Below are positions 8,579-42,534 of a stretch of 64,000 bases of DNA, one piece after another. The notes under the pieces were generated by a model. The model was not told the origin of the DNA. It ran no database searches and was given only the letters and a program-made list of their open reading frames with translations. The stretch lies in the UHGV virus genome UHGV-0179803, one strand, 5' to 3'. This DNA comes from a virus. The position numbers were made by a program, and so were the translations under genes. The first letter of the stretch is position 1. Every line of letters starts with the position of its first letter.

Positions 8579-8964
8579 ATACGAACCCCATCTGCTGGCC
8601 CAGAGTATCGCTCAGGTTCCGTTACCGGATCACTGGCTGCTGGAGCTTCCATTCGCATCTGAGCCTGATCTCCATCCATATAAAGCCAGAACTCTATCTC
8701 TTCACCAGAAGAAAGGATAGCATAACCGTGGAAGAAATCTTTGTTCTTAGTCAACTTTTCGTCAATTGTTGCTTCGACACAAACTTCTTCATAGCCACTT
8801 TTTTGTAGCGTGTACGTTGCAACCTGGCAAGCATAAGCCTCTTGATCTCTGTAATCTTCACCCAGTGAATGAATGATGAAACCCAAGCCTAATCCGCAAA
8901 ACAGGATAATGCCTAAAGCAAGCATACACTTGGCGAAAGCAACACTGAACAGAAAATTTTTCAT
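8575..8964 (-). CDS. membrane or secreted protein
   Basis: N-terminal hydrophobic segments (FLFSVAFAKCMLALGIILFCGLGLGFII). Confidence 0.4.
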   Translation of the reverse strand: MKNFLFSVAFAKCMLALGIILFCGLGLGFIIHSLGEDYRDQEAYACQVATYTLQKSGYEEVCVEATIDEKLTKNKDFFHGYAILSSGEEIEFWLYMDGDQAQMRMEAPAASDPVTEPERYSGPADGVRI

Positions 8965-9094
8965 ACAATGAACCTCATAGCTTCAACAAACAGAAGACCT
9001 AATGCTGCACCGAACGCAAACCAGCACACCCCATCAATTAACTCCTTAATGAACTTTTTCATGTTGCCCTCTCTTACACATCCTTGTGTAACAT

Positions 9095-9550
9095 TTATTC
9101 AAAAAGTAGCTCTACGTGGTGTAAAATAAGCATTAATTGCATTAACACAATGACAAGAACTACCCAGTTGGCTTTATTATTAACAATTTTACGAATCTTT
9201 TCAGAACGTGATTCAGGTAGAGATCTCAGGATACGCTCTACTGAACGATTCATATCACGGATAGCCATTTTAAAACTGTCCGATCCTTCATCTTGCTCCG
9301 TAACCACGTCGAAAGCACAGTCTTTAGCGTTACCTCCAGAACCACGAGTCACAATGAGTCGATACATTGACACAGAATAATGTGTATTCGACTCAGCGTC
9401 ATAGATGCTGAGAACTTCTTTGGTATGGTCAATTGCTGATGAAAGTTTAATCGCACCAGCTGTCGTCTCAATTTTACCAGCCTCAAGGAGCATTAACCAA
9501 TGCTTTTTATCCAGATTCTCAAGACTAGATCTGACGTACTTCACAAACAT
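9095..9550 (-). CDS. tail-anchored membrane protein
   Basis: 151 aa with C-terminal hydrophobic helix WVVLVIVLMQLMLIL. Confidence 0.4.
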   Translation of the reverse strand: MFVKYVRSSLENLDKKHWLMLLEAGKIETTAGAIKLSSAIDHTKEVLSIYDAESNTHYSVSMYRLIVTRGSGGNAKDCAFDVVTEQDEGSDSFKMAIRDMNRSVERILRSLPESRSEKIRKIVNNKANWVVLVIVLMQLMLILHHVELLFE

Positions 9551-9763
9551 TTAATCCTCCTTGCCGAAAGTTAAAAAGAAGTTAAAATCATCAATCCAGT
9601 CCCAATTAGAGCGGATCATAGGCCACGATTTATCACCATGCTCAACATTGTGGGCGCGATAGTCCATCTCCCACACATCAATTAGCTGGTGCATATACTC
9701 TTTAGCCTGCTCAAGAGACATGTTGTCAGGATCAATTTTTGTAATGTCAATCATCTTCATCAT
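9551..9763 (-). CDS. hypothetical protein
   Basis: 70-aa ORF. Confidence 0.35.
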   Translation of the reverse strand: MMKMIDITKIDPDNMSLEQAKEYMHQLIDVWEMDYRAHNVEHGDKSWPMIRSNWDWIDDFNFFLTFGKED

Positions 9764-9994
9764 CCTCTTTTAGTTTGTGATAAAGGATAATTGCACCCGC
9801 TAAGATAACAAAAAACAGGCACACCCCAGTCAACATCTCAACCAACATTGCTTGGCCCATGATCAACCTCTTCAATTAGCTCAACAACTTCATGTAGCAA
9901 GTTTTGCAACAAAATTTGATCAGCCAATGTTTTAGCATTGTTTCTGTGGTCTTTTATGATGTGGAGCACTTGCCACAACAATTGGGCATGAATA

Positions 9995-10213
9995 TCATCT
10001 TCCATCACCACCTCCTCTCAGCTTACGCATATTCTTAACCCAATCGATTACACCGATCAGCAAGCCCAGGAACAGGAAAGGCCACAATCCTGCCAACCCA
10101 AGGATATTATGAACATCATCACCATCAATCCGACGTTTAGTCTTCATACACAGGATTGCCAGAACAATCATCAACAATCCTGCTACACCGAAATATAGTT
10201 CAACAATGCCCAT
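9995..10213 (-). CDS. small two-TM membrane protein (holin-like topology)
   Basis: 72 aa with two hydrophobic helices and charged C-terminus; not adjacent to the endolysin. Confidence 0.35.
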   Translation of the reverse strand: MGIVELYFGVAGLLMIVLAILCMKTKRRIDGDDVHNILGLAGLWPFLFLGLLIGVIDWVKNMRKLRGGGDGR

Positions 10214-10224
10214 TGTGTCAACTC

Positions 10225-23984: not shown

Positions 23985-24257
23985 CTACTGGTCAACCAGC
24001 TTAACCATGCAGTGGCCTTCTTTCCACTTAGAAATCGACTTCTCACCGTTAGAATAGTAGACTTCCAGTTTAGCACGGTTATTTTTGATCTGTATGACTT
24101 TTGCTGTCTCCAGAGCACCATAACCGTAATACACTGCAACAGTATCACCTACGTACACTGCACTGCCACGGTAGTCATGGATGTAATCAGTACCTTCTGA
24201 AACCATACTATCCACCTTATTCGAAGAAGTGAGTTCGAGGACAAGATCCTGCCTCAC
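23985..24257 (-). CDS. hypothetical protein
   Basis: 90-aa ORF, start uncertain. Confidence 0.35.
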   Translation of the reverse strand: MRQDLVLELTSSNKVDSMVSEGTDYIHDYRGSAVYVGDTVAVYYGYGALETAKVIQIKNNRAKLEVYYSNGEKSISKWKEGHCMVKLVDQ

Positions 24258-24420
24258 CTTGTTTCACCAGCTCGTACACTTCGCCTTGGCTCGTTTCATA
24301 GATACAAACTTTCTGCCCGTTGCCACGATAAGTGTCCACAAGGTAAGCTGTGTCACCTGCCAATGCAAAACCTGAAGCAAACACCACAGCAGAAATAAAG
24401 ACAGCCCACAGTGTTTTCAT
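24217..24420 (-). CDS. small secreted protein (signal peptide)
   Basis: MKTLWAVFISAVVFASGFALAG signal-like N-terminus, two Cys in mature part; no lipobox. Confidence 0.35.
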   Translation of the reverse strand: MKTLWAVFISAVVFASGFALAGDTAYLVDTYRGNGQKVCIYETSQGEVYELVKQGEAGSCPRTHFFE

Positions 24421-24482
24421 AGTGCCCTCCTCCTTATCAACAAGTGAAGTATACCAGAAACAAAGCAGGCTGTCAAATAAAC

Positions 24483-24962
24483 TTAATCTGTAACCACACC
24501 TCCAGCATTACGGAAAACCCTCAGCATTTTTTCAATATCCTCAACCCGCTGATCATAAAGTTTACCAGAACCTGGAGGTGGTGGGAAACTCGCCCAGCGG
24601 CTACGGCATTTATAGATAGCTGAACGGATCCTCCCTTCATAAATGTCATCAAGGGCTTTACATTCACGGATCAGTTGTTTTGCTATAGCATCCTGACTTG
24701 CTGGGCCGAAATCTCTTAAGCCGAGCTGTTTCATATAATGTTTGGCATATTTCTCCAAGATCTGATATCTGCCGAATGCTGATGACGTTAAGCCCGGACG
24801 TAGTTTGACATAAATACCTGGGTGTTTACTAAGATCTTCTATATACCTCCCGCCACACAAGATGTGATACGAAGCAGCTTCGCTACCGTAACGGTCAGTT
24901 CCTTCACTGAACGAAATCAACGAAAAAAATGCTCTCAATTGCTTATCCTTATTTAATTTCAT
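24483..24962 (-). CDS. endolysin (lambda R-like lytic transglycosylase)
   Basis: FFSLISFSEGTD, GRYQIL, QLGLRDFGPASQDAIAKQLI, WASFP closely mirror lambda R; RBS GGAGG. Confidence 0.9.
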   Translation of the reverse strand: MKLNKDKQLRAFFSLISFSEGTDRYGSEAASYHILCGGRYIEDLSKHPGIYVKLRPGLTSSAFGRYQILEKYAKHYMKQLGLRDFGPASQDAIAKQLIRECKALDDIYEGRIRSAIYKCRSRWASFPPPPGSGKLYDQRVEDIEKMLRVFRNAGGVVTD

Positions 24963-25684
24963 TTGAACCTCCGATTAAACCACTCTTCCAACAAACCGTT
25001 ATGCTTTGCATACTCTGCGGATTTTCTGACACATACAGCATCCCACCACTCTGCATATTGCCCTAGGTGATACCTTTTACTATTTTCAGAAATCTGAACT
25101 TGCCACTTTTCAGCATCATGTCTCCATTTAACACCTGTGCACCCCGACGTGTTATTAAGTTTAAGTGTTCTGCCTTTGTAAGTACCTAAAATTAGCTGTT
25201 TTCTTGCCTCTACAGCCTCGTCTTTGGTTCTAAAGTACCCAGCAAAAAGCGCCCCGCCTGTGATAGTGTTATATTCTGCATACCATAAACCGTTCTCACG
25301 TTTCTTATGAACGCCTGCGTGACCGTGTAAATTATTTTTCTGTAGTAAATTATTTCTTATACGATCCTTGTTATTCTCACTATATGTTCCCATAGCAAGA
25401 TTTTCTATATTATCCTGACCTTTTATGTCATTTAAATGCCTGACAAGAAAGTTTTTTGTTAGGGAGTTATAAAACATATCATAAACTATTCTATGACGTT
25501 TCCTCTCACGAACCTCCGAGGATTTAATACCGATGTACCCTTGCCTATCTTTACAACCCGCTTTTGTGCCAGCCTTTATAAAGAGTTGACTTTTGCCTCT
25601 ACCTCTGTAATGATTCTTTGTCCAAATTAGCTCCCCATCTTTGTACCAGAATGGGAAATTATCATTAAAGAAGAAATTAATCAT
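24959..25684 (-). CDS. HNH homing endonuclease with two AP2 domains
   Basis: RKRHRIVYDMFY...VRHLND...DNIENL (HNH); two AP2-like repeats (GVHKKRENGLWYAEY; NTSGCTGVKWRHDAEKWQV); own RBS; ATGA overlap with endolysin start. Confidence 0.85.
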   Translation of the reverse strand: MINFFFNDNFPFWYKDGELIWTKNHYRGRGKSQLFIKAGTKAGCKDRQGYIGIKSSEVRERKRHRIVYDMFYNSLTKNFLVRHLNDIKGQDNIENLAMGTYSENNKDRIRNNLLQKNNLHGHAGVHKKRENGLWYAEYNTITGGALFAGYFRTKDEAVEARKQLILGTYKGRTLKLNNTSGCTGVKWRHDAEKWQVQISENSKRYHLGQYAEWWDAVCVRKSAEYAKHNGLLEEWFNRRFK

Positions 25685-28348: not shown

Positions 28349-29053
28349 TTACAGTTCGTCAACATCTACAAAGCTCGAAGGCTTCATGATCTTTCCTTTT
28401 CCATCAAGGAAGATGAAGCGTTTTTCACCTCTGTAGTATATTTCTGAGCAAGTGAAACCAGTATAACGCCCTTCGAATCGGTTTGTCAACTCTTTTAGCT
28501 CCAAACCTACCAGTGACGGAATATCTACCTGCACAGCAGGGACACCGTGTGCTGCACGAAGGTTCTGCAATGTGGCAAATTTACTGTCGTTTGATTCCAG
28601 AACTTTTTTCATCATACCTTCAGTATCGCCACGGAGCTGGAACAGCAGAGCAGTTGACATACGGCAAAGTTTAGCAACGTTCATCGACTGATGATCACCA
28701 ACCATCGCACGACTTAGGAGATGCATAAACGTTCCAATTTCAAACTTACTTTCTGTGTCACGCTCGAATAATTCCTTCCAGACTAGTGTCTCACGGAGCA
28801 AGTATCCGGCGTAGCTTGTCACTACGAAGAGATCACAAGCCTCTTTCATCAAATGATCAATATCACCTTTGTCAATTGCTTCCAGTACCTCATTGAACTC
28901 TTCTTCTACAAAATTTAGTTGCAGATCCAGAGGTGTAAACTTACCGCCTTTGGCTTGTGTGGCAGCAAGGTTCCATTCCCGTACATGATCAGCGGCCCAT
29001 GTGAAATTATCGCTAAGTGAAAGTTCTTCCAGTTTACGGTACAGTTTAATCAT
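28349..29053 (-). CDS. MazG-like nucleotide pyrophosphohydrolase domain protein (putative)
   Basis: EEEFNEVLEAIDKGDIDHLMKEACDLFVV resembles MazG/HisE EExxE..DL motif; 234 aa. Confidence 0.4.
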   Translation of the reverse strand: MIKLYRKLEELSLSDNFTWAADHVREWNLAATQAKGGKFTPLDLQLNFVEEEFNEVLEAIDKGDIDHLMKEACDLFVVTSYAGYLLRETLVWKELFERDTESKFEIGTFMHLLSRAMVGDHQSMNVAKLCRMSTALLFQLRGDTEGMMKKVLESNDSKFATLQNLRAAHGVPAVQVDIPSLVGLELKELTNRFEGRYTGFTCSEIYYRGEKRFIFLDGKGKIMKPSSFVDVDEL

Positions 29054-29547
29054 TGTTGTGAAGCCCCTTTTCGTTCAAGTTTAGCAATCAATATCCCCAC
29101 CAACACAACCGCAATGCATTTTACCCCAAACTGCATAGCCATAACACCTGGCATAATCTCAAGGAATGCAACCGGACTGAATATTAATGCATCCACAGCA
29201 GCAGTGCAGATATTTACAACCACTATGTTATCTGTGAATCTATAAAGTATGTTGGCAGCACCGCAGCTTGCTACAACAGCTACAAAGCAACCTATCGCGG
29301 CCTGTGTGGCAACAGGAGATACAGCAGCTGTAACCATACCAGCTATTGCCACCATGCTTATAGACCAGAATGCTCCATACTGGTGGATCACGTTGTCACG
29401 CAGAAACATGTTTGCAGCAACACAACAAGAAGTCGTGATCGGGATAACCATCCATCCCCAAACACCAACTGCAATGTTACACAGTGTGAAGATCAGTATG
29501 TATAGTAATGCTTTTTGCAGCATTGGCATCCGATCTATGATCGCCAT
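29050..29547 (-). CDS. integral membrane protein (multi-TM)
   Basis: 165 aa, about five hydrophobic helices. Confidence 0.5.
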   Translation of the reverse strand: MAIIDRMPMLQKALLYILIFTLCNIAVGVWGWMVIPITTSCCVAANMFLRDNVIHQYGAFWSISMVAIAGMVTAAVSPVATQAAIGCFVAVVASCGAANILYRFTDNIVVVNICTAAVDALIFSPVAFLEIMPGVMAMQFGVKCIAVVLVGILIAKLERKGASQQ

Positions 29548-31847: not shown

Positions 31848-32045
31848 TTACTCCTCCAGGCAAGCTGCACCGTTTTCTTCCTCGAACTCATATCCGGCGA
31901 CCACAAGATCTATCAGCCGGATCGCCAGACCACCATTAGGTGAATCCACCATTAAGTCCCAACCTTCAAGGTAGGCGTAGTAAACACCACCTGTTGAGAA
32001 CAGGTAATCACCTATTGCTGGTGTTTTCGTACATTTTACAAACAT
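31848..32045 (-). CDS. hypothetical protein
   Basis: 65-aa ORF. Confidence 0.3.
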   Translation of the reverse strand: MFVKCTKTPAIGDYLFSTGGVYYAYLEGWDLMVDSPNGGLAIRLIDLVVAGYEFEEENGAACLEE

Positions 32046-32149
32046 CTCTACACCTTTTATTCGCCTTCAAAAGATTTCTTTTGCAATTCATCAATAGCGT
32101 AGCTAACGATGAGATCTATCTGTTTTTAAGTAATTTCATCTTAAGCCCT

Positions 32150-32482
32150 CTATTTTGCAGATTTCCTTGCTACTTTCTTCGTAGCTCTGCGGCGTTTGTG
32201 GTAGATATCAAGAACAGCGTTCTCCTGGGCACATGTTTTGACTGTTTTCAGGTTGTAGGCTTGCGCTATCGGAAGATTCAGTTCCCACCAGCCAAGCCAG
32301 TATAGCTCACTCTCTGTGAGCTTCTCCTCCTTTGCTTTTCGGTACAGCTTCTGCATACCCGCGATAATATCATCGAGCGGGGTATCAAACACAAAAGCTG
32401 TTTTATCAAAAGGTGCTTTCTTCGGCTGTTTTGCCTTAGGCATCTTCCACCTCCTTAAATATCTGGTGCATCGATTCATCAC
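32150..32482 (-). CDS. hypothetical basic protein
   Basis: 110-aa ORF, Lys/Arg-rich termini. Confidence 0.4.
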   Translation of the reverse strand: MMNRCTRYLRRWKMPKAKQPKKAPFDKTAFVFDTPLDDIIAGMQKLYRKAKEEKLTESELYWLGWWELNLPIAQAYNLKTVKTCAQENAVLDIYHKRRRATKKVARKSAK

Positions 32483-32705
32483 TCATCACCAGAAAATCCC
32501 CAAAGAAGTCCACCAGCCAATCACCACGATGGAGAACATACCCACCAAAATCATCATCGATGAGGGCTTGTGGTCGGAAATCTCTCGTCCGTACAGCATG
32601 ACGAACAAACACCCCAGTATCGTGCCAGTGTTGCAATTCAGACACGCTTGTGCTTGAGCCATCAAACTGGTGTGCTTCAATCGGTTTAATCAGTTCAAAT
32701 TTCAT
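32436..32705 (-). CDS. hypothetical protein
   Basis: 89-aa ORF. Confidence 0.4.
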   Translation of the reverse strand: MKFELIKPIEAHQFDGSSTSVSELQHWHDTGVFVRHAVRTRDFRPQALIDDDFGGYVLHRGDWLVDFFGDFLVMSDESMHQIFKEVEDA

Positions 32706-37899: not shown

Positions 37900-37975
37900 G
37901 CCCCGTTAGTTCAAATGGAAGAACAGTGGCCTTCTAAGCCATAGGTTACAGGTTCGAGTCCTGTACGGGGTGCCA
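37900..37975 (+). tRNA. tRNA-Arg (anticodon TCT)
   Basis: cloverleaf by hand: acceptor GCCCCGT/ACGGGGT, D-arm GTTC-AAATGGAA-GAAC, anticodon stem GTGGC/GCCAT with loop CTTCTAA, T-arm ACAGG-TTCGAGT-CCTGT, discriminator G, encoded CCA. Confidence 0.85.
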
Positions 37976-38407: not shown

Positions 38408-38809
38408 GTGCCAGCAGTACTTGCATTCCTGATAAAATATAAGCGCGTGATAAAATGGACTATCGCGGCTGTCTTACTGGTTGTAGCCTGCGCTGGAGTG
38501 CACAGTTGGTACAACACCCAGATACAAAATGCCTACAACGAAGGGGTCGCTGTAACAGAGCAGAAATGGGATAAACTGATGATGCAGCAGAAGCTACAGG
38601 CCAACCAGACGAAGTTGGAACACGCTTACGAAGTCAGAGAGCTTGAGCAAAAGCTGGCTAACATGCAGAACGCCATGAACGCTCCTGGAGCTTTTGGTGG
38701 GGCTACACAACAGCAGTTCCAGTCATCTCCAGAAGGGCAACAGAACCGGATCCCAGATAAAGTGATCGATATCTACAACGAAAGTATTAACTCGGAGGTG
38801 CAGCAATGA
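38408..38809 (+). CDS. i-spanin (Rz-like)
   Basis: GTG start with RBS GGAGG; N-terminal TM WTIAAVLLVVACAGV, then coiled-coil-rich periplasmic domain; 4-nt overlap with o-spanin. Confidence 0.7.
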   Translation: MPAVLAFLIKYKRVIKWTIAAVLLVVACAGVHSWYNTQIQNAYNEGVAVTEQKWDKLMMQQKLQANQTKLEHAYEVRELEQKLANMQNAMNAPGAFGGATQQQFQSSPEGQQNRIPDKVIDIYNESINSEVQQ

Positions 38810-39102
38810 GGTGGTTACTTGCATTAGCGATTGCACTCACGTTTTCTATGGCCCTGGTAGGTTGTAGCTCACCTAAAAGTACGCCAGTTACAGTTGCACC
38901 GCAGAAAGTTGAACAACTTGCTGTAGAGCCTCCTGCGGCAGCTATGATCCCACCAGCAATAGCTATCCCCTTGGTGAAAGGTGCACCAGATGCGGATAAC
39001 TCTGCAATTATGAGGCAGAACAATCTCTCCTGTAGCAATGATCGTGCCAAATTAATCATCTTGCAGGATTATGTAAAATCTTTATTCAATAAGGAGAATT
39101 AA
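38806..39102 (+). CDS. o-spanin (Rz1-like lipoprotein)
   Basis: signal peptide plus lipobox LVGC, Pro-rich mature region; stop overlaps terL ATG. Confidence 0.75.
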   Translation: MRWLLALAIALTFSMALVGCSSPKSTPVTVAPQKVEQLAVEPPAAAMIPPAIAIPLVKGAPDADNSAIMRQNNLSCSNDRAKLIILQDYVKSLFNKEN

Positions 39103-40215
39103 TGGCTAAAATGTATGGCCCATGCTCCCGTAAACAACAAATGATTCTGGAAAATGATGCCGACTTCCTGATCATTGGTGGGGCAGCGGGTTGTTTGTCA
39201 ATGCGACATGAGGTGATGACACCTAACGGGTGGATCAGAATATCGGAATGGGATGGTCAAGATATCCTCCAGTTTGATAAAGAAACTGGTAAGGCCATGT
39301 TTATCCAGCCTGAAGAGTTTGTTAAGCTGGAATGCGACAAACTAACCAGGATTGTGCAGGATGGTATTTGTCAGGAATTATCCGACGAGCACACAGTTCT
39401 GTACGTCCCAGAAGACGGAACAGCTTACGGTACACTTAATTTCGGAGAAGTGGCTGAACAGTATGCTAACGGTGAGTTGGCAATGCGTATGCAGACCACG
39501 TTTGTGAACATGGGTGGTACTGGCCTTGGCATTTCTGACGAAGAGCTGAAAGAAAGGGCAAGATATTACAAATTCACAGATGAGTGGTATAATTGTGATC
39601 GTCGTCAGTTGTTGCAGATCTGGTATGAGATTTACCTGAACGGTAATGATCCCCATGCCTACGTTGTTCCAACGAAAGAACAGGCTGATTTCTTGCAATA
39701 CCTCGGATCATCTTTAGGTTTCAACGCACAGATCTTCTTCGAAGAAGGTTACAAAGTTGTGTTCTCTAATGAACGTGCAGGTACGATTGCTCTTAATAAC
39801 GATGCAACGTTCGAAGAGTTTGAGCCGGAAGATGGTTACAAATATTGTTTTGCTACCACAACAGGCTATTTTATCACCAGACTGGAAAACTGCATTGCAG
39901 TGACTGGTAACAGTGGTAAATCCTTTCTTCTACAGCTTCTCCCACTAAAGATGATAGATGACCCCAACACTTCTGTGGTGATGTTCCGTAGGACAACTCC
40001 ACAACTGGAAGGTGAAGGTGGTCTGTGGCCTAAAGCACTGAGTGTGTATCTGGATCTTCCTGAGTACATGAGGCCGAAATTCAGAGAGAAAGACCATAAG
40101 TTTACTTTTCCATATTATGATGCAAAGACGGGCAAATGGAATAAGAAAAGAGACGGAGCAGTAATCAAATACTGCCATATGGAATACGTCCAAGATAAGC
40201 TGAATCATCAAGGGT
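39102..40215 (+). CDS. terL: terminase large subunit, exon 1 (ATPase domain, includes intein)
   Basis: MAKMYG...DFLIIGGAAG | intein | SGKSFLLQ reconstitutes Walker A GGAAGSGKS; ORF ends at TAA 40215-40217, proposed to be created by the intron. Confidence 0.75.
39192..39911 (+). mobile_element. intein (240 aa) inserted in terminase P-loop
   Basis: begins CLSMRHEV (Cys1, block A), EHTVLYV block B-like, ends YFITRLENCIAVTGN (C-terminal Asn) followed by Ser +1; removal gives contiguous Walker A. Confidence 0.75.
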
Positions 40216-40742
40216 AAACAAACCTGCCCTTCGTGCCTAATTCGGTGAAACTCCTTGACAAAAGGACAATACCGAGCTACGGTTAAAGGATTAGTTGAAA
40301 CCGAGTGTAACGACTATCCCCGATGAGTGTAGGGGAGTAGAATCACAAGCGATTGGTGATCCAAACGGCACGCCAAGGAGGGAAGAGCTAGTCTGTTCCA
40401 CATGGTAACATGTGGCGGGTGTCTTAGCACACCGCGTCGGAGTAGCGATCCGGCGGGACAAAAGTGGAATATACTTTAATATGTTTTGATGAGGGTTAAC
40501 TGGTAGCTCTCGTAAAACCTCCCTAATTGCGGGGAAATCTTTACTATTGACACCACCAACCTATTATGGTAACATAATATTGGCTTCGGAGAAATACCGA
40601 AGGTATGGTAATAGCGTGTTGATTTAGATAATCCGCAGCGAAGCATCCTGATAGGATGTGTGCTCAACGACTATCGCTTACGGGCGTTAGGGCCAAGCGG
40701 CTGGGGAAACCCACAGTCTTTTAAGACTGCCGAAACGGGAGG

Positions 40743-41036
40743 ATGGGAATGTGTAAAACTAAAAAATGTGTAGATTGCCAGAGAGTCCTACCTCTTGAGG
40801 ATTTCTTTTTATCTTCTAAGAGTAATGATGGGTACTCTGGTACATGCAAGGAATGCTATATGTACTACAGAAAGAATGGATCTCGTAGAAACAAGGATAT
40901 GGTTAAGAGAGATGATGCAGCAGCGTTTATTCAAGATTTGCTAGAGAAAGGTGAGCTTTTTGAATGCAAATCTTGTCATAAAAGTATGCTCGCTGACAAT
41001 TTTACACAAAACGTGATTATGGTAGGGTATATCTAG
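40743..41036 (+). CDS. intron-encoded Cys-rich (Zn-ribbon-like) ORF
   Basis: CxxC pairs (CVDCQ, CKEC, CKSCH); directly upstream of HNH ORF in a different frame; may be a separate protein or a frameshifted N-terminal part. Confidence 0.4.
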   Translation: MGMCKTKKCVDCQRVLPLEDFFLSSKSNDGYSGTCKECYMYYRKNGSRRNKDMVKRDDAAAFIQDLLEKGELFECKSCHKSMLADNFTQNVIMVGYI

Positions 41037-41053
41037 TCACGGGCAGGTGTAAA

Positions 41054-41338
41054 ATGTGTGAGAAGTTCTATCAGCTTGAGAAGAAATTTCACATAACAAA
41101 AGACGAATATTTTCGTCTACTCTCAGATCAAGATTATAAATGTGCCATTTGCGGGATATCACTTGATGAGTATAGGTCGCAAGGGTACAGAGATTTCTTT
41201 AGTGTTGATCATGACCATAAGACTGGCGCTGTAAGAGGTTTGCTTTGTGATAAGTGTAACAGAGCTTTAGGTTTTTTCCAGGAGGATGAGGAAACTCTTC
41301 TTAAAGCGGCAGAGTATTTACACACTCATAAGATATAG
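41054..41338 (+). CDS. intron-encoded HNH endonuclease (endonuclease VII-like)
   Basis: CAICG...VDHDHKTGAVRGLLCDKCNRALGFF signature; ORF ends 3 nt after the S element, i.e. sits in intron loop P8. Confidence 0.8.
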   Translation: MCEKFYQLEKKFHITKDEYFRLLSDQDYKCAICGISLDEYRSQGYRDFFSVDHDHKTGAVRGLLCDKCNRALGFFQEDEETLLKAAEYLHTHKI

Positions 41339-41454
41339 TCTGGTCTGCATGGAGACATGCAGCTGCCACATGGTGGCGGGGCAAGAGTAGCGACCTTGCC
41401 CGAACACAAACGACACAGTTCGATTGGGAGCAAATCGACTACCTGATTTCTCGT

Positions 41455-42534
41455 ATGAGGTCGAAATCGAAATACTCTTCACGGATGGTGATCAGCTGTA
41501 ACCCGGATTCTGAACACTATTTAGCCAAACTGGTTCGTTGGTGGCTTGACGACGAGGGCTACCCAGATGAAAGCAAGTGTGGCGTTAAGCGCTATTTCAT
41601 CCGTAGGGATGGGGAATTTATCTTCGGCGATACGCCAGAAGAGTTGATCGAGAAGTATACCTATGTTAACGGCAAAGGTGTTGAGATAATCCCAAAACCA
41701 CTCTCTATCGCTTTTATCGGTGCAACAATCCACGATAACCCCATCTGCTTGCGTGATAACCCAGAATATCTTGCATTCCTGGAAGGTCTGCCAGAGCTGG
41801 AAAAAGCACAACTCCTCTACGGTAACTGGTTCGCTAAGCCTGAAGGTGCAAACTATTTCAGTCGCACATTCTTGAAAGATGCGGATCATGTCCCCCTCGG
41901 AGCAGTTTCTGTAAGAGCATGGGATAAAGCTGGTACAGAACGTACCTCTGGCAACAAATTCCCCGACTATACAGCCAGTATCAAGGTCAGTAAGGATAGT
42001 GATGGTTACTACTACATCTCCGGTGACTATTGCCCTGAAAACGTAGATGATGGCAGATATTCTACGGGCTTGCACGGTAAGTTCTGCAAGAAAGCTGGGG
42101 AACGTGATGTTATTATCAAGAAACAGGCAGAGTTTGATGGTGAGGACTGCGTAATTGTCTTCTCTGTGGACCCCGGTCAGGCAGGTAAGAGTGAGTTTCT
42201 TACTTCATCTCGTAAACTTCTTGCCGGAGGGTTCAGGGTAGAAGAAGACCCAATGCCGTCTAACAAATCAAAACTCACCCGTTTCTCCCCGTTTGCCAAC
42301 CTTGCCCAACAAGGGATGGTGCGGCTTGTCCGGTCAAGTTTCGACCCGGATACACTGGAAGCATTTTTGACAGAGCTGGAGAAATTTAACGGCGAACGGT
42401 CAACCTTTAGCCGTAAAGATGATTGGGCTGACTCCATTGCTTCTGCAATTAACTACCTTGAAAAAGAGGAAGTTGCTATGCCATGTGTTATTCCGAAGAT
42501 TGTTTCACCCTCTATGTATAAGAGGATGATTTAA
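41455..42534 (+). CDS. terL: terminase large subunit, exon 2 (nuclease domain)
   Basis: VRAWDKAGTERTSGNKFPDYTA and DWADSIASAINY match terminase nuclease motifs; frame open from 41332, true 3' splice junction unresolved within ~41399-41454. Confidence 0.75.
   Translation: MRSKSKYSSRMVISCNPDSEHYLAKLVRWWLDDEGYPDESKCGVKRYFIRRDGEFIFGDTPEELIEKYTYVNGKGVEIIPKPLSIAFIGATIHDNPICLRDNPEYLAFLEGLPELEKAQLLYGNWFAKPEGANYFSRTFLKDADHVPLGAVSVRAWDKAGTERTSGNKFPDYTASIKVSKDSDGYYYISGDYCPENVDDGRYSTGLHGKFCKKAGERDVIIKKQAEFDGEDCVIVFSVDPGQAGKSEFLTSSRKLLAGGFRVEEDPMPSNKSKLTRFSPFANLAQQGMVRLVRSSFDPDTLEAFLTELEKFNGERSTFSRKDDWADSIASAINYLEKEEVAMPCVIPKIVSPSMYKRMI

Follow-up and report, generated by a model that had tools for sequence, protein, structure and literature searches.

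Endolysin and spanin genes in opposite arms of a human-gut relative of coliphage rV5, and candidates for its holin

We analyzed the lysis genes in a 64,000-nt stretch of the virus genome UHGV-0179803, referred to below as the window. An endolysin gene related to lambda R lies at 24483..24962 on the minus strand, among DNA-metabolism genes, and a spanin gene pair of the Rz/Rz1 type lies at 38408..39102 on the plus strand, beside the large terminase gene. An original prediction, made from the letters of the window, had placed both there, had put them about 14 kb apart and had stated that neither adjoins a clear holin. All of this held in our analysis. The two loci are separated by 13.4 kb, and none of their neighbors is a membrane protein: the endolysin gene is flanked by genes for an HNH endonuclease, a secreted 67-amino-acid (aa) protein and a DUF7205 protein, and the spanin genes by those for an 88-aa soluble protein, a tRNA-Arg and the terminase large subunit TerL.

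The window is ∼64 kb of a ∼136-140 kb human-gut myophage related to coliphage rV5 (subfamily Vequintavirinae). At both the DNA and the protein level, its best matches were Vequintavirus phages. A 10-kb query around the lysis locus matched, at the DNA level, only Vequintavirus (rV5-like) coliphages, in patches of ∼72-84% nucleotide identity, and the proteins of the window were from 25% to 90% identical in amino acid sequence to those of the phages rV5, Bas59 and LL12. Human gut metagenome contigs of 135,863-140,635 bp were 85-92% identical in nucleotide sequence to the window over the aligned segments. An IMG/VR contig recovered through a 40-mer match from the window (L010) was also a relative, 84-92% identical; it showed no usable terminal repeat, and bas59_0085 as a query did not lead to it. 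These comparisons place the phage in a separate clade, related to Vequintavirus.

Endolysin and spanin loci

The endolysin gene encodes a 159-aa protein that matched PHROG 90, annotated "endolysin", with an E value of 1.6e-39. In a phmmer comparison, its residues 7-158 aligned with the lambda lysozyme R structures 1AM7 and 3D3D (E ∼3e-29; 2.9e-29 for 1AM7), and its FSEGTD aligned with the catalytic WSEGTD of lambda R, the Glu of the N-terminal SEGT motif being kept. We found no hydrophobic window above threshold in this protein and no signal, signal-arrest-release (SAR) or transmembrane domain (TMD) segment; the N-terminus, MKLNKDKQLRAFFSLISFSEG, is polar or amphipathic. By homology, the protein is a soluble lambda R-type transglycosylase endolysin (GH104 in the annotation of relatives). 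Because it has neither a hydrophobic N-terminus nor an export signal, it is predicted to be a cytoplasmic endolysin of the holin-dependent, non-SAR type, which would need a hole-forming holin.

Immediately upstream lies a gene for an HNH homing endonuclease (24959..25684, minus strand; Pfam HNH_3, PHROG 99), whose stop overlaps the start of the endolysin gene by 4 nt. The two genes together (24483..25684) matched the same pair in the phages Bas59, VB-EcoM-WM, YP-6 and HMD-6, with 82% amino acid identity for the endonuclease, 90% for the endolysin and 83.5% identity for the DNA. The 90% value is that for the Bas59 and VB-EcoM-WM endolysin, and the 82% and 83.5% values for the endonuclease are against Bas59. 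The match to Bas59 DNA stops at the edges of the cassette, and the flanking genes are only 52-78% identical. The endolysin of rV5 (gp085) is 62% identical to that of the window and has no HNH gene upstream. The pair therefore looks like a recently exchanged cassette, in which the endolysin allele would have moved together with a homing endonuclease.

The first spanin gene (38408..38809, plus strand) encodes an Rz-like inner-membrane spanin (i-spanin) that matched phrog_4297 (E 8e-30). An N-terminal TMD, at about residues 17-33, precedes a helical domain in the periplasm, and the protein is ∼40% identical to ORFs annotated as i-spanins in the BASEL phages and LL12. The second gene (38806..39102, plus strand) encodes an Rz1-like lipoprotein of the outer membrane (o-spanin), which matched phrog_1267 (E 1.7e-17) and is 63% identical to the Bas59 o-spanin. 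Its lipobox is LVG followed by C: the lipoprotein signal MRWLLALAIALTFSMALVG leads into CSSP, with Ser at +2 and +3. Thus the lipobox Cys is present, no inner-membrane retention residue follows it, and the mature part is rich in Pro. The two genes overlap by 4 nt (38806..38809) and are otherwise separate, and the o-spanin gene ends where the terminase gene begins, at 39102. By sequence, they are a two-component Rz/Rz1-like spanin pair directly upstream of a split terL.

The terL gene (39102..42534, plus strand) is interrupted twice. Against the TerL of Bas59, which is uninterrupted, the first terL open reading frame (ORF) has a 240-aa insertion (residues 31-270) exactly within the Walker A motif, between GGAAG and SGKS; the insertion begins with C, ends with N and looks like an intein. 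A gap of ∼1.2 kb after this ORF holds a gene for an EndoVII-type endonuclease (41054..41338), and the C-terminal part of TerL is encoded at 41455..42534. We found no group I intron in the gap at the Rfam gathering threshold. Upstream of the spanin genes, the tRNA-Arg(TCT) gene at 37900..37975 (plus strand) is a single tRNA gene at a place where Vequintavirus relatives have six or seven.

The secreted protein downstream of the endolysin gene

The gene that follows that of the endolysin (24217..24420, minus strand) encodes a 67-aa protein, here called p67, which belongs to phrog_4641 and is found conserved across 121 phage records. A strong ribosome-binding site, AAGGAGG, precedes the gene, and the encoded N-terminus contains a hydrophobic stretch. 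The original prediction had listed this protein among the possible holins. More broadly, p67 could take part in lysis as a holin with a single TMD, as an antiholin resembling RI, or as a periplasmic protein that regulates or inhibits the transglycosylase. Two observations favor such a role. The p67 gene lies directly downstream of the endolysin gene both in the window and in its Vequintavirus relatives, and in both the two genes have remained neighbors despite a different placement with respect to the exonuclease gene. Moreover, the outline of p67, with an N-terminal hydrophobic segment and a two-cysteine periplasmic domain, resembles that of the phage T4 proteins RI, T and Spackle.

An alignment of the window protein with ten homologues (A1) pointed elsewhere. 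The N-terminal hydrophobic region varied freely, whereas a -3/-1 signal-peptidase site (ALA, AWA, AWS, VRS or VFA, then G) was kept in the ten complete sequences, and the 46-residue mature part, including its two cysteines, was nearly invariant. An unconstrained hydrophobic region, a conserved AxA, VxS or VxA site and an almost unchanged mature part are the pattern of a cleaved signal peptide, and for these reasons we read p67 as a secreted periplasmic miniprotein with a Sec signal peptide and a 46-aa mature domain, and not as a holin with a TMD; the cleavage is predicted. The AlphaFold (AF2) model of the mature domain is a confident four-stranded antiparallel beta sheet (pLDDT ∼90), unlike RI and Spackle, which are helical proteins. 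A Foldseek search with this model returned no match below E 0.001 in the PDB, and in BFVD it returned only uncharacterised phage proteins.

The expression signals and the distribution of the family also weigh against a part in lysis. A promoter-like site of near-consensus sigma-70 type (24448..24476, minus strand; TTGACA-17-TGgTATACT) lies in the 62 nt that separate the endolysin and p67 genes and would give p67 a transcript of its own, separate from that of the endolysin; in rV5, a promoter of sigma-70 type, P90, is annotated at the equivalent position. An exhaustive search of 1.84 billion representatives with a profile hidden Markov model (HMM) of p67 gave 10 matches at E ≤0.001. Seven were short and related, namely the representative of the clade itself (P0005), a 52-aa fragment (P0031) and five distant homologues; the other three were long proteins and apparently spurious. 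The five distant homologues share the design of a signal peptide and two cysteines, and none of them carries a name. In Salmonella phage SSBI34 and at two further loci (L016 and L017), a p67 homologue lies between the ligase and exonuclease genes without an adjacent endolysin gene, and at two others (L018 and L019) it lies within a tail module. Since these homologues sit elsewhere, adjacency to an endolysin is not general to the p67 family. Overall, p67 is unlikely to be part of the lysis machinery, and we regard a role as holin, antiholin or transglycosylase regulator as very improbable.

Membrane proteins as holin candidates

We scanned every ORF of the window that has a hydrophobic segment against Pfam and NCBIfam, to E = 1, and against PHROGs, to E = 0.01. 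No such ORF matched a holin family. The best candidate in the window by shape was the protein encoded at 9995..10213 (minus strand), one of two small membrane proteins that the original prediction had named beside p67. The gene is present there, and its 72-aa product combines two TMDs with a strongly basic tail, DWVKNMRKLRGGGDGR, at the C-terminus, as would suit a small holin with a charged C-terminus. It is the syntenic orthologue of rV5 ORF129, which encodes the 78-aa gp129 (25% identity, E 1e-11, same flanking genes). Synteny of the family holds in the clade of the window, in rV5 and in Klebsiella phage KP12; all three share a WP motif in the second TMD, and the proteins of the window's clade and rV5 gp129 have the tail motif D[WY]xKN[MI]RK in common. 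In 2013, Kropinski put gp129 forward as the holin of rV5 (PMC3606486). However, the sole family match of the 72-aa protein was phrog_10061, which leaves it without a holin family, and a strongly basic loop between the TMDs makes its topology ambiguous. The annotators of LL12, Gotham and the BASEL phages did not accept gp129 as the holin.

A deletion in Bas59 weakens this candidate further. In a nucleotide comparison (Bas59, L008 48400..49500, against rV5, L003 2900..6721), Bas59 followed rV5 up to rV5 position 93,899 and resumed at 97,720, that is, with a clean 3.82-kb deletion whose ends overlap by 15 nt of microhomology. No long repeat that could explain a mis-assembly was present. The deletion takes the 3' end of ORF128, all of ORF129-141 and most of ORF142, and we found no second copy of gp129 in Bas59. 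This phage was isolated on E. coli K-12. We reasoned that loss of the only holin should prevent a phage from lysing and that gp129 is therefore at most redundant. Thus, an essential holin of the gp129 type is unlikely, and for the 72-aa protein of the window the proposal of a holin, sound as to the existence of the gene, its two TMDs and its orthology to gp129, is weakened by the loss of the whole block in Bas59; we consider it improbable. The same deletion takes ORF133, annotated as a virion structural protein, and the annotated "putative glycosidase" bas59_0152 spans the junction and looks like a fusion of ORF128 and ORF142.

The 72-aa gene stands in a cluster at 8575..10213 (minus strand) that is syntenic with rV5 ORF129-134, and four of its seven ORFs encode proteins with hydrophobic segments. 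Besides the 72-aa protein with its two TMDs, these are a 42-aa protein with a single TMD (9747..9875, minus strand; rV5 ORF131-like, phrog_15251, E 8.5e-9), a 151-aa protein with a TMD at its C-terminus, which annotations of relatives call a virion protein, and a 129-aa protein (8575..8964, minus strand; phrog_11867), the orthologue of rV5 ORF134. The last has an N-terminal TMD and a C-terminal domain of ∼95 aa with two cysteines, the same outline of a single N-terminal TMD as in holins and antiholins of the T4 type, to which it has no homology. The orthologues of the 42-aa, 151-aa and 129-aa proteins all fall within the block deleted from Bas59. A promoter-like site (10221..10192) overlaps the start of the 72-aa ORF.

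The other small membrane protein of the original prediction, encoded at 3709..3966 (minus strand), exists; it is 85 aa long, and a charged, soluble tail follows its one N-terminal TMD (phrog_13956, E 3.6e-9). It is retained in Bas59 (42% identity to the Bas59 ORF), and its soluble tail is conserved; nothing apart from the TMD spoke for a holin, and nothing spoke against one. Three further ORFs were set aside. The plus-strand ORFs 31940..32305 and 32316..32657 have hydrophobic stretches and were rejected as shadows of minus-strand genes, and ORF 922..1206 has no ribosome-binding site and no family match. Among the nucleotide-metabolism genes (ligase, MazG-like, exonuclease) lies a gene for a 165-aa protein with about five hydrophobic segments (29050..29547, minus strand), which matched phrog_4899 and has no homologue in Bas59.

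The relatives of the phage have holins annotated elsewhere, but these are all "putative" and lie outside the region that corresponds to the window. One of them is bas59_0111, a 123-aa protein with two N-terminal TMDs and a 70-aa tail, encoded in the other early arm of the Bas59 genome, called a "putative holin" by the BASEL authors and present at ≥90% identity in 119 Vequintavirus records. A tblastn search found no homologue of it, neither in the window nor, in contigs of the same clade, within 10 kb past the left end. Searches of IMG/VR with protein and alignment queries, like a word-indexed protein search, returned only its close Vequintavirus relatives.

In the clade of the window, contigs L023, L024 and L025 carry a gene (L023 19490..19840, minus strand; ∼8 kb beyond the left end of the window) for a 116-aa protein that is specific to the clade and has three hydrophobic segments towards its C-terminus. 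The gene lies upstream of that for a secreted protein, a counterpart of which (39% identity) is encoded in the Vequintavirus-like contig L020, and thereby takes the place that a bas59_0111-type gene has there. A holin outside the window, in the other early arm, would then be of the bas59_0111 type in Vequintavirus and the 116-aa protein in the window's clade. The putative-holin annotation and wide conservation of the former are consistent with this proposal, as are the position of the latter and its size and three hydrophobic segments, which are as expected of a class I (lambda S-like) holin. However, neither protein matched any holin family, and the two are not homologous to each other. In the bas59_0111 family, the conserved part is the soluble C-terminal tail, and the number of TMDs is one or two between variants, which would be atypical if the TMDs form the hole. 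Position and topology are thus what speak for the proposal, and we hold it tentatively, at somewhat less than even odds. We treat the 116-aa protein as a lead, which shows where a holin might lie outside the window.

A more far-reaching reading would have the inner-membrane step carried out by an unrecognised holin family, possibly that of the 116-aa protein, with p67, taken as a disulfide miniprotein, as a new periplasmic modulator of peptidoglycan cleavage. If it were true, p67 might regulate the endolysin, or inhibit the tail lysozymes of incoming phages and thereby block superinfection. We consider this combination quite unlikely.

The same contigs revealed small differences in gene content inside the clade. 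Relatives have two genes that the window lacks, one for a 111-aa protein with zinc-ribbon and TM2 domains (L023 7858..8193) and one for a 236-aa HNH endonuclease near the end of the arm (L010 1818..2528 and L023 10678..11388).

Lysis-gene layout in the rV5 group

The layout of the lysis genes in the window is the ordinary, already published arrangement of the Vequintavirinae. In rV5, the lysin and the putative holin were reported in 2013 to be encoded apart from each other, "as in phage T4" (PMC3606486). Spanins that adjoin the large terminase, with no classic cassette, were described for CB7, rV5 and PVP-SE1 (PMC7344957, 2020). The LL12 paper (PMC6658697, 2019) is among the reports of split lysis genes or a missing holin, no holin was identified in Gotham (PMC7471380, 2020), and the KPP-1 paper likewise reports none. 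In the literature, we found no experimental identification of a holin for the rV5-like group. Two other papers were tried as guides: the UE-M6 holin paper concerns a canonical holin-endolysin cassette in a phage that is not described as rV5-like, and the KP12 paper gave no help in identifying the holin of the rV5-like group.

A side-by-side comparison with rV5, LL12 and Bas59 showed the same arrangement. In all of them, as in the window, a GH104-type endolysin is followed by a signal-peptide protein of ∼68 aa, the spanin pair lies directly upstream of an interrupted terL, and no recognised holin stands beside the endolysin or the spanins. In LL12, as annotated by the Center for Phage Technology, the order is endolysin, p67, minus arm, tRNAs, hypothetical gene, i-spanin, o-spanin, intron-containing TerL and portal. 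Bas59 shares the order of LL12, with the endolysin and a ∼68-aa ORF in the minus-strand DNA-metabolism arm, then a divergent region that holds the tRNAs, and the spanins before terL. The differences lie in sequence and in detail. Compared with their Vequintavirus counterparts, the i-spanin of the window is 40% identical, p67 67-69% and the orthologue of ORF129 25%. In the window, the endolysin and p67 genes lie downstream of the exonuclease gene, whereas in Vequintavirus they lie between the ligase and exonuclease genes. The window has one tRNA instead of six or seven, and an additional intein is present in its TerL.

Dispersed lysis genes are classic in T4, in which the endolysin, holin and spanin genes stand at unlinked loci. 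The window resembles T4 (e, t, rI and pseT.3/pseT.2) as a large virulent myophage with a soluble endolysin and a separately encoded, non-embedded spanin pair at unlinked loci, and the rV5 group shares homologues of rIIA and rIIB with T4. The two differ in that the endolysin of the window is a lambda R-type transglycosylase and that of T4 an E-type lysozyme, and our Pfam, PHROGs and NCBIfam scans detected no homologue of holin T or antiholin RI among the ORFs of the window. Compared with the S-R-Rz/Rz1 genes of lambda, the endolysin is homologous to R and the spanins are functionally of the Rz/Rz1 type. Unlike in lambda, there is no cassette: the endolysin and spanin genes are on opposite strands with 13.4 kb between them, the i-spanin gene does not enclose that of the o-spanin, and an HNH endonuclease, not an S-like holin, is encoded upstream of the endolysin.

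We therefore favor the view that the window belongs to a relative of rV5 with dispersed lysis genes, in a layout known for the group and in principle for T4, and that its holin lies elsewhere or belongs to an unrecognised family; we put the probability of this at roughly 0.85. Most probably, the holin is encoded beyond the window, in the other early arm, or is of a family not yet recognised as holins. By analogy with established lysis biology, the soluble lambda R-type transglycosylase would be made from the minus-strand DNA-metabolism arm and, because it has no export signal, would probably accumulate harmlessly in the cytoplasm. A holin would open the inner membrane at a set time, fixing the timing of lysis, and the spanins would then fuse or disrupt the outer membrane. 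A split between the arms would pose no mechanistic problem for such a sequence of events, since an endolysin without a signal is harmless until the holin fires, as it is in T4.

Three points weigh against this view. The holin step is taken from established lysis biology, and we found no holin. That the minus-strand arm is "early" is an assumption made from its gene content, and sigma-70-like promoters occur in both arms. We counted 23 near-consensus sigma-70 promoter-like sites in the window (at least 11 of 12 positions), each oriented as the surrounding genes. All 16 on the minus strand lie at ≤35.2 kb and all seven on the plus strand at ≥37.2 kb, and several fall within the structural-gene arm. 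Lastly, the endolysin-p67 pair has stayed adjacent in the window and in Vequintavirus despite its different position relative to the exonuclease gene, which leaves some room for a functional link.

The split of the lysis genes and the missing holin have been in the literature of the rV5 group since 2013, and the finding itself therefore matters little. Beyond the known layout, our analysis makes small additions, namely that p67 appears to be secreted, that the gp129 block is lost in Bas59 and that the HNH-endolysin cassette seems to have been exchanged. The comparative results slightly narrow the search for the holin of these therapeutic and gut phages, a widespread group. With the gp129 block lost from a phage isolated on K-12 and p67 probably secreted, attention would shift to the membrane proteins of the other early arm.

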